Sequence record: ON528738
Source of the DNA: Shigella phage ESh28
Strand: one strand, 5' to 3'
DNA length: 64,000 bases
Within the stretch, counting starts at the first letter, position 1. Each line of letters opens with the position of its first letter. Shown in pieces: positions 9,376-15,393 of this stretch. The notes below the pieces were generated by a model. That model searched no databases, had not been told where the DNA came from, and saw nothing but the letters and a program-made list of their open reading frames with translations. The position numbers and the translations under genes are program-made.

Positions 9376-9405
9376 GTTTACTTTCCGTTTGAGCTGTGGT
9401 ACTAT
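9376..9405 (+). promoter_or_regulatory. T4-type early promoter
   Basis: GTTTAC ... TGGTACTATAC with shared leader ACAACTATC. Confidence 0.6.
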
Positions 9406-10782: not shown

Positions 10783-11316
10783 ATGAAACGATTAGTATTA
10801 GAAGTTAGTCCACTTTTTGGTGAATTGGCTATAGAAAAAGTAAATAATATGTATCGTTTGACGCAAGAAGACGATATGATGTATTTTACACCTAGTGAAA
10901 TTATTCATTTAACCCAAATTGAATATCCTTATACTGATAAAATAGTAAGCATCAATGATGAGCACAAAATTCATTTTTATTCTTCATGCCCAGGATTTAA
11001 TATTAAAAGTGAGTCAATGTGTTTATCAGTTATCCATTGGGATAGTTTTATAGCTAAGATTAAATATTTTTATTATTCTAATGAAAGAAAACATAGTTTA
11101 AAATGGCTCAAAAATTGCAATGCTATTATTACTAACGCTTGCAATCAGAATGATGAAACTCTTTTAAATGTATCAAAATGTTATGAAGATGGAGATGTCT
11201 TAACTATTCGTCAAATTGACGATTTTCGATCGCATATTGTCACATTTACCAAAGACGAAGCTATTGCGCTAAAGACTTATCTTGATTCTGTCATTCCAAC
11301 TATGATTTCAAAGTGA
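10783..11316 (+). CDS. hypothetical protein, paralog pair member A
   Basis: C terminus ...KDEAIALKTYLDSVIPTMISK resembles that of the next ORF. Confidence 0.5.
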   Translation: MKRLVLEVSPLFGELAIEKVNNMYRLTQEDDMMYFTPSEIIHLTQIEYPYTDKIVSINDEHKIHFYSSCPGFNIKSESMCLSVIHWDSFIAKIKYFYYSNERKHSLKWLKNCNAIITNACNQNDETLLNVSKCYEDGDVLTIRQIDDFRSHIVTFTKDEAIALKTYLDSVIPTMISK

Positions 11317-11322
11317 GGAAAT

Positions 11323-11844
11323 ATGTTTATTTCAAGTGAAAGTGGTTTAATTCGTGCTGAATTTAAAAATGACATCTTTCTTATTCAAGGAGATGATATT
11401 ATTAAAATGAGTTATGACGAAATCAAGAAAATTTGTCATGCTCTTGAAAGTCATGGAAAAGTGAACGCTGTTATTGATATTGGCGATTTATGGGTGACAC
11501 TTTATGAAGTATCCGAAGGATTTAATATTGAAGATGAAAACAACATCTTAGCTATTGATAAAAGAAGTGATTTGTTTGATGTATTAAAAGTTTATGAACA
11601 GTCAAACGGTGGAAGAAAAGCTGTATTGATTTATCAAAAACCACATTCATGTGGAACTGCTTCAATCATTTCAAATATTGATGATGAAACTGATACTTAT
11701 ATGTGTGTTTTAAAAGCTGGTGGTGACCGTCATCCGGATTTTATTTCTATTCGTCAAAACAATGGAGAAATTTCATTATCAAAATCAGAAGCTGAAGCGA
11801 TGATTAAGTATTTAACAACCGTTACGCCTTCAATGAAAGGATAG
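11323..11844 (+). CDS. hypothetical protein, paralog pair member B
   Basis: C terminus ...KSEAEAMIKYLTTVTPSMKG resembles previous ORF. Confidence 0.5.
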   Translation: MFISSESGLIRAEFKNDIFLIQGDDIIKMSYDEIKKICHALESHGKVNAVIDIGDLWVTLYEVSEGFNIEDENNILAIDKRSDLFDVLKVYEQSNGGRKAVLIYQKPHSCGTASIISNIDDETDTYMCVLKAGGDRHPDFISIRQNNGEISLSKSEAEAMIKYLTTVTPSMKG

Positions 11845-11846
11845 TT

Positions 11847-12308
11847 ATGATTATTAATGAAAACTCTTGGCACTATAAATTATTCAAATTGTTTAACGAT
11901 GAATGGCAACGACCTAAGACACTATGCGCATACTTTTGGTCTATTGTTATCCCTACATTTTTCGTTTCTATTTTTGGGTGTGCTATACTCGTAGGGTTAA
12001 CAATTATTTGTGCAGAAAGCCTACAACGTTGGCTTATTTTCGGTAGTTTATGGACTTTGCTTCCATCAGCATTTATACTTGCGCTTTTGGTTGTTTTACT
12101 TATTATCGGTTCATTTGTTATTCCTGCACAACTGCGTGAAAAATATAAAGATTATAAATGGAAAAAGGACTATGCTTTACACGTAGAAAATATTGATAGA
12201 GCGTATAAAGGTTTACCTCCTATTCAACCCAAGAAATCGATTATCGTCGAATTTTTAAAAGCTCGTAAAGCTAAAGTATGTCCTGTTATTGAATATAAGG
12301 CTGAATGA
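11847..12308 (+). CDS. polytopic membrane protein
   Basis: Several hydrophobic helices; ATGA overlap into next gene. Confidence 0.5.
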   Translation: MIINENSWHYKLFKLFNDEWQRPKTLCAYFWSIVIPTFFVSIFGCAILVGLTIICAESLQRWLIFGSLWTLLPSAFILALLVVLLIIGSFVIPAQLREKYKDYKWKKDYALHVENIDRAYKGLPPIQPKKSIIVEFLKARKAKVCPVIEYKAE

Positions 12309-13318
12309 TGAAAACAGTAATGAAAAGCTATTTTGGTAGTCATCTTTATGGAACTTCTACCCCAGAATCTGATGTAGATTTTAAAGAAATCTTTGTTCCT
12401 CCTGCTCGCGATATTCTTATTGGAAATGTTAAAGAGCACATGAGTAAAAATACCAACAACACATCATCTAAAAACACTAAAGATGATATTGACCACGAAT
12501 TGTATAGTCTTAAGTATTTCTTTAAATTAGCAGCAGATGGTGAAACTGTAGCATTGGATATGCTTCACACTCCACCTGAACTAGTGGTTAAATCTGATTT
12601 GCCTGATGTGTGGAAGTTTATTCAAGACAACCGTTCTCGTTTTTATACGACTAACATGAAATCCTATTTAGGATATGTCCGCAAGCAAGCTTCTAAATAT
12701 GGTGTCAAGGGTTCTCGTTTGGCTGCATTACGCGATGTATTGAAAGTAGTTAATCAAATCCCTGAGCAATGGGTTGATTACCAAGAAGATGGTTCTATTA
12801 AGCAGCGTCGTACTAAAGTTGAAGATATTAAGCATCGTCTTCCAGAAAACGAATTCTGTGAATGGGTGTTCCATAATCATGAGAAAACAGGCCCACAAAC
12901 GTTCTACACTGTGTTGGGTCGTAAATATCAGACAACGCTTTCTCTTATTGAGCTTAAGCAGTCACTGAACAAATTAGATGCTGAATATGGTGAACGTGCT
13001 CGTAAGGCCGAAGCCAATGAAGGTATTGACTGGAAAGCTCTGAGTCATGCTTGCCGTGGTGGACTCCAACTATTGGAAATTTACAAAACTGGTGACTTGG
13101 TTTATCCACTCAAAGATGCTCCTTTTATTCTCGACGTGAAGTTGGGTAAGCATCCATTTAAAACGGTTCAAGAGTTTTTGGAAGATGTGGTCGATCAAGT
13201 AGAAGCAGCATCTACTGAAGCTTCTAAGAACGGTATGCAACAAAAAGTAGACATGAGTTTCTGGGATGACTTCCTTGAGAAGGTCTATCTTGAAAACCAC
13301 CGAAATTATTATAAATGA
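12305..13318 (+). CDS. nucleotidyltransferase-fold protein (Pol-beta superfamily motif)
   Basis: N-terminal G-S-x10-D-V-D signature (YFGSHLYGTSTPESDVDF); 337 aa. Confidence 0.55.
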   Translation: MMKTVMKSYFGSHLYGTSTPESDVDFKEIFVPPARDILIGNVKEHMSKNTNNTSSKNTKDDIDHELYSLKYFFKLAADGETVALDMLHTPPELVVKSDLPDVWKFIQDNRSRFYTTNMKSYLGYVRKQASKYGVKGSRLAALRDVLKVVNQIPEQWVDYQEDGSIKQRRTKVEDIKHRLPENEFCEWVFHNHEKTGPQTFYTVLGRKYQTTLSLIELKQSLNKLDAEYGERARKAEANEGIDWKALSHACRGGLQLLEIYKTGDLVYPLKDAPFILDVKLGKHPFKTVQEFLEDVVDQVEAASTEASKNGMQQKVDMSFWDDFLEKVYLENHRNYYK

Positions 13319-13320
13319 TA

Positions 13321-13345
13321 GGGAGCCTTCGGGCTCCCTTTTTTA
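13321..13345 (+). terminator. rho-independent terminator
   Basis: GGGAGCC-TTCG-GGCTCCC hairpin plus T tract. Confidence 0.7.
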
Positions 13346-13368
13346 TTTCAAAAATTTTTCACAAAGTT

Positions 13369-13398
13369 GTTTACAAGCATAAAGCTTTATGGTACTAT
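13369..13398 (+). promoter_or_regulatory. T4-type early promoter with conserved leader cassette
   Basis: A/T-rich UP, GTTTAC, TATGGTACTATAC, then leader ACAACTATCAACTGATACGGATTTGGAGAATAAAATG. Confidence 0.6.
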
Positions 13399-13432
13399 AC
13401 AACTATCAACTGATACGGATTTGGAGAATAAA

Positions 13433-14401
13433 ATGAAAACTGTAACTATCAATAAGGGTATCTACTTCGGTAAAGAAATCTCTGGAACTTTTGAGCTCTT
13501 AGGCGAATGGTTCCCAGATAATGCTCCGGTAGATGCACAAGGAGATGGTAAAGTTTTTGTTGAAATTGACGGTAAGCGTCGCGGTGTTTGGGTTTACAAA
13601 TCAGACATTTCATATGATGGTGTAAAAGTTGAAGAAGTTAAAGAATCATATGAAGATATGAAAACCCGCATTAATAAAAGATTTAATGTTATGGGAATGA
13701 TGACGAATGGTATTATTAACGGAAACATTCGTTCATTAATTATCTCTGGTGCGGCGGGTATTGGTAAAACGTATTCTTTAGATAAAGCTTTAAATAAAGC
13801 AAATGATATTGGATACATTGAATATAAAAGCATTAACGGTAAAATCTCTGGTATCGGTCTTTATGAACAGCTTTGGAATAATCGTGAAGAGAATTCTGTC
13901 CTTTTGATTGATGATGTGGATGTTTTCTCTGATATGGACATTCTTAATCTTCTAAAAGCTGCTCTGGACACTGGAGAGACCCGTAAAGTCTGCTGGAGCA
14001 CTGCATCTTCTTACTTAGAAGAAAAAGGCATTGAGCGTGAGTTTGAATTTAAAGGAACGATTGTTTTTATCACAAACGTTGACATTGACCGCGAATTAGA
14101 CCGTGGTACTAAACTTGCTCCGCATTTACAAGCATTAGTGTCCCGCTCAGTTTATTTGGATTTGGGTGTTCACACTAATGAAGAAATTATGGTCAGGGTT
14201 GAAGATGTTATTCTTTCAACTGACATGATGCAAAAGCGCGGTCTTTCTGATGAAGAAACTTATAAAGCATTATCATGGATGAAAGTCAATGTTAATCGTT
14301 TACGCAATGTTTCACTGCGTACTGCACTTTATCTTGCTGACTTTATTATGACCGACAAAAATGGTTGGGAAGAAATTGCTGAGGTTACTCTTCTGAAATA
14401 A
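13433..14401 (+). CDS. AAA+ family ATPase
   Basis: Walker A GAAGIGKT and Walker B VLLIDDVD; start ATG is the terminal ATG of the leader cassette. Confidence 0.6.
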   Translation: MKTVTINKGIYFGKEISGTFELLGEWFPDNAPVDAQGDGKVFVEIDGKRRGVWVYKSDISYDGVKVEEVKESYEDMKTRINKRFNVMGMMTNGIINGNIRSLIISGAAGIGKTYSLDKALNKANDIGYIEYKSINGKISGIGLYEQLWNNREENSVLLIDDVDVFSDMDILNLLKAALDTGETRKVCWSTASSYLEEKGIEREFEFKGTIVFITNVDIDRELDRGTKLAPHLQALVSRSVYLDLGVHTNEEIMVRVEDVILSTDMMQKRGLSDEETYKALSWMKVNVNRLRNVSLRTALYLADFIMTDKNGWEEIAEVTLLK

Positions 14402-14805: not shown

Positions 14806-14807
14806 TT

Positions 14808-14837
14808 GTTTACAAGACCGTTCCTCTGTGGTACTAT
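14808..14837 (+). promoter_or_regulatory. T4-type early promoter with conserved leader cassette
   Basis: GTTTAC ... TGTGGTACTATACAACTATCAACTACGGAGG. Confidence 0.55.
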
Positions 14838-14865
14838 ACAACTATCAACTACGGAGGAACAGAAA

Positions 14866-15393
14866 ATGAATGCTAAAGATATTTTCAACTTGGTAAACTA
14901 CAATGATGGTAAATTTAAATCTGAAGCTCAAAGCAAGTTCTTTAATGATGTCTCAATCGGTGGTGAAATCACGGTTGATGGAGGACAAATTTACAAATCC
15001 CGTTGGAATTGGATCGTTATTATCGATGAGATTGGTATTGTAGAAATTTACAAGAATACGAATAAAAATCGTACATTACACTGGTCTCGTGATACTAACG
15101 AACAGTACAAAAAGGATAAAGCATCTAAATTATCTCGTGTAACTCAAGAAGATATTGAGTTCATCAAGAAAGATATTTTGATGTATGATAACTTAATTGC
15201 TGAAGAGCAAGCTGTTATTGATAAATTTGACGAGATTAAAGCTTCTCGTGAAATTCCTGATTTTATGAAAGAATCAGTAAATGAACGATACACTCTCATT
15301 TCAGAGCGTATTGAAACTTACAAAAAGCAAAGAGCTGAACGCCAAAATACTCTTCGGAAGTTTGAAGAACGGTTAAAGACGGTACTCGCATAA
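14866..15393 (+). CDS. hypothetical protein with C-terminal coiled coil (family member 0)
   Basis: C-terminal heptad-like ...ERIETYKKQRAERQNTLRKFEERLKTVLA; ATG after GGAGG. Confidence 0.5.
   Translation: MNAKDIFNLVNYNDGKFKSEAQSKFFNDVSIGGEITVDGGQIYKSRWNWIVIIDEIGIVEIYKNTNKNRTLHWSRDTNEQYKKDKASKLSRVTQEDIEFIKKDILMYDNLIAEEQAVIDKFDEIKASREIPDFMKESVNERYTLISERIETYKKQRAERQNTLRKFEERLKTVLA

Follow-up and report, generated by a model that had tools for sequence, protein, structure and literature searches.

The 64,000-nucleotide window of Shigella phage ESh28 analysed here (record ON528738; all positions refer to this whole stretch) carries at positions 12305-13318 an open reading frame (ORF) that is the already known T-even gene nrdC.11. 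The best explanation of the evidence as a whole is that its product, a nucleotidyltransferase (NTase) assigned by sequence to the RlaP family, is probably an enzyme that adds nucleotides to RNA ends in phage transfer RNA (tRNA) repair. The gene and the family were both known before. New here are the invariance of the catalytic residues in distant relatives, the NTase fold of an AlphaFold2 model, and a cellular clade of relatives encoded in RNA-repair operons.

The window is T2/T4-like phage DNA. The 2.65-kb stretch around the NTase gene and its AAA+ ATPase neighbour is 98% identical to many Tequatrovirus (T2/T4-type) genomes and is matched by 733 phage records. The product of ORF 12305-13318 is a protein of 337 residues that starts with MMKTVMKSYFGSHLYGTSTPESDVDF and shares 99% identity with the T2 protein and 98% with T4 NrdC.11. 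The original prediction of a Pol-beta-superfamily NTase adjoining an AAA+ ATPase in a T4-type genome is borne out by Pfam, the AlphaFold2 fold and the motifs; both ORFs, the G-S-x10-D-V-D signature and the Walker A and B motifs are all present at 12305-14401. It had also held that no T4 function could be assigned, which does not stand: the two genes are nrdC.11 and nrdC.10, and in 2006 Nolan et al. matched nrdC.11 to the COG3541 nucleotidyltransferase and nrdC.10 to an AAA ATPase family (PMC1524935). The RefSeq label of T4 nrdC.11 is 'nucleotidyltransferase'. The Pfam RlaP profile (PF10127) matches residues 7-135 of the NTase with an E-value of 1.9e-11 (44.6 bits, cutoff 23), and PHROG 388 'nucleotidyltransferase' matches it at 1.5e-136. 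Homologues of nrdC.6 to nrdC.11 are often mislabelled 'thioredoxin' in GenBank because the error has spread from the locus-style names nrdC.N, and one NTase homologue (P0006) carries the wrong label 'HNH homing endonuclease'; such annotation errors on nrdC.N homologues are copied from gene names and neighbours. The features of the gene are as follows.

12305..13318, + strand: nrdC.11 ortholog, RlaP-family (PF10127) Pol-beta-fold NTase by sequence and model (ORF, Pfam, PHROG, homologues, AlphaFold2 model).
12335..12379, + strand: NTase signature G11-S12-x10-D23-V-D25, the NTP-binding turn and two metal-binding Asp residues; invariant in the distant (A1) and closer (A2) conservation sets.
12482..12499, + strand: DDIDHE with D63, which probably supplies the third catalytic carboxylate and lies on a beta-strand (62-68 in the model); D63 invariant.
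12551..12568, + strand: ALDMLH with D85, a fourth conserved acidic residue; invariant in A2, varying in a few A1 sequences.
13028..13057, + strand: DWKALSHACR, the clade-defining motif of the C-terminal domain (D242, W243, K244, A245, H248, A249 and R251 invariant or near-invariant).

With the NTase as query, an exhaustive search found homologues in 3436 clusters (50% identity), of which 826 lie below 1e-30, and the matches are near full length for all but a few fragments among the 150 homologue clusters listed. Set A1 comprised 36 representatives with 33-55% identity to the query. Fifteen residues are invariant across the 36: G11, S12, G16, S22, D23, D25, N57, D63, Y124, Y132, K244, H248, A249, R251 and P268. 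The concern that the motif aspartates might not be conserved among homologues, raised with the original prediction, is therefore answered by the invariance of D23 and D25 at this distance. The DWKALSHACR segment is a candidate RNA- or NTP-contacting helix.

Alignment by hhalign against 15 canonical full-length RlaPs gave 94% probability and an E-value of 1.5e-7 over 165 columns. It pairs GS with the invariant GS, D23/D25 with the invariant D43/D45, D63 with the invariant D82, and D85 with the invariant E104. For the middle part of the NTase (100-154) the hhalign comparison with canonical RlaP was empty. An equation of K244-x3-H248-A-x-R251 with the canonical K-x-Y-x-Y-A-L-R helix was considered and found to be unsupported, the hhalign comparison of the C-terminal half also being empty.

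An AlphaFold2 model of the NTase, built on 46 sequences, has a predicted local distance difference test score (pLDDT) of 87.9 and a predicted template modelling score of 0.73. In this model NrdC.11 has the NTase fold: residues ~1-135 make up an N-terminal alpha/beta NTase domain, after which come a helical stretch, an insert rich in beta structure (~152-212) and, at the C-terminal end, a helical bundle whose long helices span 285-308 and 317-336. This layout, with the NTase domain first and helices in the C-terminal part, may correspond to that of RlaP; in the crystal structure of PfRlaP, the last helix of the C-terminal helical domain packs onto the N-terminal NTase domain (bioRxiv 10.64898/2025.12.29.696909). 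Sequence searches of the PDB with the protein, its N-terminal domain, the clade profile A1 and a canonical RlaP profile (A4) found no NTase, the PfRlaP structure lying outside the searched set. Foldseek matches of the NTase to Cid1 and poly(A) polymerase (PAP) are very weak (probability 0.08-0.12), and PADLOC and NCBIfam gave no meaningful match for the NTase, the AAA+ protein or the upstream membrane protein. Neither Pfam, PADLOC nor the fold comparison matches NrdC.11 to the cGAS/DncV-like or CCA-adding families, with which the original prediction had noted a shared minimal motif; NrdC.11 therefore groups neither with the CD-NTase/SMODS enzymes of CBASS nor with the CCA-adding enzymes and PAPs.

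The gene neighbourhoods of relatives point to RNA repair. We compared 78 viral and 80 cellular loci (L numbers below) encoding NrdC.11-type proteins; the cellular loci were picked by the clade motif DWKAx[SH]HAxR, and many of them are short contigs. Among the cellular loci RtcB is encoded in 9, Pnkp in 7, Hen1 in 6, and RtcA and Ro60/TROVE in 3 each, so that at least one of the five is found in 17 of the 80; representatives of each were confirmed by Pfam. On a 4-kb contig binned as Bathyarchaeota (L085:62-3803), overlapping genes on one strand form a compact operon of the NTase, an NT5C-like protein, a T4-type kinase-phosphatase (AAA_33 + HAD_PNKP), an unassigned 143-residue protein and an Rnl1-family ligase. 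This is the clearest cassette for healing, adding and sealing among the loci. At L130:5547-8771, a 745-residue fusion of a kinase (AAA_33), a calcineurin-like phosphoesterase and a T4 Rnl1-type ligase ends 4 bp before the NTase gene, and at L122 the gene for a PNKP-type phosphatase stops 18 bp before it, with RtcB farther downstream. From these counts and cassettes it follows that the NrdC.11-type clade is tied to healing-and-sealing enzymes, including those of T4 type. The association with RtcB, RtcA, Pnkp, Hen1 and Rnl1-type ligase genes is a further likeness to RlaP. Genes for HD or HD_4 phosphohydrolases adjoin the NTase gene or lie within 1.5 kb of it at L076, which is viral, and at L127, L152, L158, L093, L117 and L120; they are possible 3'-end healing partners.

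The activity expected of NrdC.11 is taken from two Pseudomonas RlaPs, PfRlaP and PaRlaP, which are encoded between rtcB and rtcA and were characterized in a preprint of December 2025 (bioRxiv 10.64898/2025.12.29.696909). Both attach 1-2 nucleoside monophosphates to the 3'-OH of RNA, but not to DNA or protein. They accept all four NTPs as well as dATP, prefer Mn2+ or Co2+, and have as their preferred target the 3' end at a broken anticodon loop (bioRxiv 10.64898/2025.12.29.696909). RlaP partly recovers the aminoacylation of a tRNA lacking one nucleotide when it acts before ligation, and its authors have proposed that it is an antidote to nucleotide-removing ribotoxins such as RloC and PaOrf2 (bioRxiv 10.64898/2025.12.29.696909). 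They place T4 NrdC.11 in the RlaP family, in network cluster 5, with no function assigned to it. A survey of jumbo phages makes the same prediction for phage RlaPs (PMC7824862).

What NrdC.11 acts on, how many nucleotides it adds and what it does during T4 infection are inferred as follows. The enzyme would bind an NTP and two divalent metal ions, probably Mn2+, through D23, D25 and D63, and would extend the 3'-OH end of broken RNA by one or two untemplated nucleotides, chiefly on the 5' halves of tRNAs cleaved within the anticodon loop. It would act after PseT has cleared the 2',3'-cyclic phosphate and before Rnl1 (RnlA) seals the break. A tRNA shortened by a host anticodon nuclease such as RloC would thereby become repairable in a fraction of events. 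The 3'-OH product suits a 5'-phosphate ligase such as Rnl1 better than RtcB (bioRxiv 10.64898/2025.12.29.696909), and the product expected of NrdC.11 would thus be an Rnl1 substrate. NrdC.11 also belongs to the same phage lineage as the PseT and RnlA repair system of T4, which counters PrrC, and NrdC.11-type genes share operons with T4-type Pnkp and Rnl1-type ligase genes at L085 and L130. However, the classical T4 pathway needs no nucleotide addition because PrrC cuts once. NrdC.11 may be a third enzyme that has been missing from the T4 tRNA repair pathway, although we hold this to be less than an even chance. The nrdC.11-mobD.3 block of T4 can be deleted (PMC9825161), which fits an accessory, host-dependent role.

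Several points weigh against a role of NrdC.11 as an RNA-end nucleotide adder in repair. The tested RlaPs have diverged from the NrdC.11 clade, for which RNA-end activity is a prediction from sequence: NrdC.11 falls into network cluster 5, separate from cluster 1a. Untemplated addition would also give the right nucleotide in only a fraction of events (bioRxiv 10.64898/2025.12.29.696909). The PF10127 match spans profile positions 23-142 of 249, which is only the N-terminal half, and the C-terminal half of the protein (residues 205-337), with its own DWKAxSHAxR motif, has no hhalign match to canonical RlaP. NrdC.11 is about 70 residues longer than RlaP, its clade having a beta-rich insert of about 60 residues, and it differs further in a loop at ~40-60 with KNTxDDxD. 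Its nearest solved structure is HalB (9dbh), a protein-primed oligo-dA synthase and no RNA-end modifier. In T4, about 78 kb separates nrdC.11 from pseT and rnlA. Repair genes no more than 10 kb away from the NTase gene are present in few of the 78 viral loci: RtcB at L076, Rnl1 at L068 and L079, and PseT at L067, L069 and L074. The linkage to RNA-repair genes is therefore a property of the clade and is seen neither within this window nor near T4 nrdC.11; no tRNA gene and no gene for RtcB, Pnkp, Rnl1 or canonical RlaP was found within the window.

A further point of the same kind is that bacteria often encode the NrdC.11 type alongside canonical RlaP and not as a replacement of it. In 24 of the 80 cellular loci, a canonical full-length RlaP neighbours the NrdC.11-type gene (PF10127 E-value of 4e-73 for a representative). 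In 22 of these it lies 20-300 bp downstream on the same strand, mostly at 20-100 bp. The loci are listed here.

Canonical RlaP directly after the NTase gene: L084, L089, L099, L101, L102, L107, L111, L112, L115, L126, L133.
Canonical RlaP directly after the NTase gene, continued: L135, L136, L138, L146, L147, L150, L151, L153, L155, L156, L157.
Canonical RlaP 3-4 kb away on the opposite strand: L139, L142.

Because the two types coexist, they are probably not redundant. Their position side by side suggests different jobs, and the tandem of diverged paralogs suggests either a division of labour or a heterodimer. This paralog tandem is a point that is absent from the RlaP preprint (bioRxiv 10.64898/2025.12.29.696909). 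T-even phages have the NrdC.11 type only, and canonical RlaP occurs in 78 phage records, mostly of phiKZ-like jumbo phages.

The same coexistence would also fit another substrate for NrdC.11, such as that of an RNA 3'-end tailing enzyme working outside anticodon-loop repair, which might rebuild CCA ends, tag RNA for decay or stabilisation, or block tRNA charging. We regard such a role as unlikely, but it is the strongest competitor of the repair reading. The divergence of the clade from the tested RlaPs favours it, as does the loose specificity of RlaPs, which use NTPs and dATP and, in E. coli total RNA, label molecules of rRNA and tRNA size as well as fragments (bioRxiv 10.64898/2025.12.29.696909). 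The HD-domain genes that adjoin the NTase gene at L076, L127, L152 and L158 recall a combination of NTase and HD domains. Such a combination is found in bacterial CCA-adding enzymes. However, the recurring neighbours Pnkp, Rnl1, RtcB and Hen1 act on internal breaks, and the NTase has no Pfam match to the CCA-adding or poly(A) polymerase families. That NrdC.11 has a different target altogether and nucleotidylylates proteins or small molecules, as AMPylators of the DrrA/GlnE type or ANT/KNTase enzymes do, is much harder to credit. The kanamycin, aminoglycoside and lincosamide nucleotidyltransferases (KNTase, ANT(4'), AadA, LinB) and the MNT-HEPN minimal NTases are among the known systems nearest to it. 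KNTase/ANT- and AMPylator-type structures do resemble the model, but at the level of the fold only and with scores below that of HalB; RlaPs leave E. coli proteins unlabelled (bioRxiv 10.64898/2025.12.29.696909), and both the sequence family and the gene neighbourhoods indicate RNA. Of the three functions offered by the original prediction, tRNA repair is thus the best supported, and a signalling nucleotide, discussed below with the membrane gene, is not supported.

The remaining alternatives concern the neighbouring genes. The elements on the downstream side and those that bound the transcription units are the following.

13433..14401, + strand: nrdC.10 ortholog; residues 1-61 form an N-terminal beta domain, which a linker joins to the AAA+ ATPase (73-322) (ORF, homologues, model).
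13748..13771, + strand: Walker A GAAGIGKT, residues 106-113; G106, A107, G109, G111 and K112 invariant.
13898..13921, + strand: Walker B VLLIDDVD, residues 156-163; D160 and D161 invariant.
13320..13346, + strand: intrinsic terminator AGGGAGCC-TTCG-GGCTCCCT followed by TTTTTAT (8-bp stem with 6 GC pairs, TTCG loop and T-run, placed at 13320-13339).
13370..13398, + strand: T4-early-type promoter for nrdC.10, TTTACA, 17 nt and TACTAT, with TG before the latter; exact match to the cassette.
9377..9405, + strand: nearest upstream early-promoter cassette, TTTACT-N14-TGGTACTAT; one mismatch to the cassette.
14809..14837, + strand: next copy of the early-promoter cassette, before the nrdC.8 homologue; a repeated regulatory element.
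11847..12308, + strand: small membrane protein, PHROG 944, with two long hydrophobic stretches.

The product of ORF 13433-14401 has 322 residues and is 99-100% identical to NrdC.10 of T4 and T2. Besides the Walker motifs it has the sensor-1 Asn, conserved arginines and the alpha-beta-alpha plus lid fold, which together place it among the AAA+ proteins, and its model has a pLDDT of 89.9. All of its Pfam AAA matches are under the gathering thresholds, and comparison with the MoxR (CbbQ/NorQ), NtrC-type, MCM and DnaA/Orc/RFC groups clearly prefers no clade. The N-terminal all-beta domain (about 60 residues, window 13433-13615) is conserved and unique to this protein, belongs to no assigned family and might serve to bind a substrate or partner.

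The spacer between the NTase and AAA+ genes is 114 bp in the window. As had been predicted, nrdC.10 stands under its own early promoter. The window has 10 copies of the cassette TTTACA-N14-TGNTACTAT, with 1.4 expected and none of 100 shuffles reaching 10; 9 of these copies are on the + strand. Because a terminator and a separate promoter lie in the spacer, the NTase and AAA+ genes are separate transcription units. The cassette at 9377..9405 is likely to be the start of the unit that ends after the NTase gene; nrdC.11 would be transcribed from this upstream early promoter together with small accessory genes and would end at its own terminator. Mechanical ORF calls prolong nrdC.10 and the nrdC.8 homologue at their 5' ends (window 13367-13432 and 14806-14865), and the two share a spurious peptide (..YGTIQLST.. 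and ..CGTIQLST..) because the promoter cassette holds a TTG; the true starts are the ATG at 13433 for nrdC.10 and the ATG at 14866 for the nrdC.8 homologue.

That the membrane protein, the NTase and the AAA+ protein form one module, for example an NTase under ATPase control or one acting at the membrane, was implied by the original prediction and is very improbable. The start/stop coupling on which it drew is real: the TGA of the membrane gene overlaps the ATG of the NTase gene as ATGATGA. The NTase and AAA+ genes are also both early and on the same strand, and 36 of the 78 viral loci, all of them T-even-like, have the AAA+ gene downstream of the NTase gene. However, the strong terminator and the promoter split the group, and the spacing between NTase and AAA+ genes varies from about 110 bp to 2.3 kb across the viral loci, with other ORFs inserted. 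In the remaining 42 viral loci and in all 80 cellular ones, the AAA+ gene is absent within 10 kb of the NTase gene. Aeromonas phage 25 has its NTase gene near 44 kb and its AAA+ gene about 100 kb away, at 149-150 kb, and jumbo phages such as 121Q also carry nrdC.10-like genes. Because of the terminator, the promoter, the absences from loci and the distance in Aeromonas phage 25, the AAA+ gene next to the NTase gene is probably a matter of conserved gene order and not a functional pair, and it should not be counted as part of the NTase system. The membrane gene is not conserved either. A PHROG 944 gene is upstream of the NTase gene in 43 of the 78 viral loci, directly adjacent in about 10, and in none of the 80 cellular loci. 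At the T4 junction upstream of nrdC.11, the HNH homing endonuclease gene mobD (L002:11930-12709) takes its place, and no match to the membrane gene was found in this T4 locus. The junction 5' of nrdC.11 is a variable insertion point, and the PHROG 944 gene is a positional neighbour of the NTase.

The least probable of the alternatives is that NrdC.11 makes a free oligonucleotide or nucleotide signal like HalB or the cGAS/CD-NTase enzymes, either to block host defence signalling or as a Hailong-like pair with the membrane protein. As a HalB-like primer-independent or self-primed oligonucleotide synthase it would resupply an oligo-dA decoy by which Hailong-type channels are kept closed, or would belong, with the coupled membrane protein, to a phage-borne Hailong-like module, and this version is equally improbable. 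A link to HalA and HalB was checked because Hailong is a pair of a membrane protein and an NTase and because HalB is the best fold match. HalB (PDB 9dbh) is described as an NTase whose protein-primed oligodeoxyadenylate gates the HalA channel, and as a protein of 217 residues that primes on its own C-terminal tyrosine. NrdC.11 differs in having no detectable sequence homology to HalB, the two being 16% identical where their structures align, and no gene for a HalA-like partner adjoins nrdC.11. The membrane protein shows no similarity to HalA or to any other solved protein, and no link of either the NTase or the membrane protein to HalA/HalB was found.

The window strand is the strand on which T4 early genes run left to right, and the order at the equivalent T4 locus is tk, rI, mobD.x, (mobD), nrdC.11, nrdC.10, nrdC.9 ... 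nrdC. Upstream of the membrane gene are two tandem paralogs.

10783..11316, + strand: y05I-like gene, first of two tandem paralogs (Pfam PF24449 and PF24448; 86% identity to T4 mobD.1).
11323..11844, + strand: y05I-like gene, second paralog (Pfam PF24449 1.4e-33, PF24448 2e-23).

The PF24449 and PF24448 domains of these paralogs are 'putative transcription factor' domains. Two copies are present here and one matched copy (mobD.1) in the compared T4 stretch L002. Some records filed as bacterial are T4-like phage DNA: L081 is a contig of a Bacilli metagenome-assembled genome, L082 is a 178-kb contig of the Flagellimonas marina assembly, and P0354 is an 'Enterococcus faecalis' partial protein with 100% identity to nrdC.10.

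The first RNA repair system to be discovered was that of T4, in which PseT and RnlA mend tRNA cut by PrrC. RloC was reportedly proposed in 2008 to beat T4-type repair by also excising the wobble nucleotide, which would make the lesion irreparable. The pairing of RlaP paralogs in bacteria suggests a division of labour that lies outside the current RlaP model. As a conserved, non-essential and early-expressed gene of RlaP type, nrdC.11 is an obvious candidate for the phage answer to RloC. If NrdC.11 is indeed the third repair enzyme, T-even phages could reverse wobble-nucleotide excision of the RloC type.

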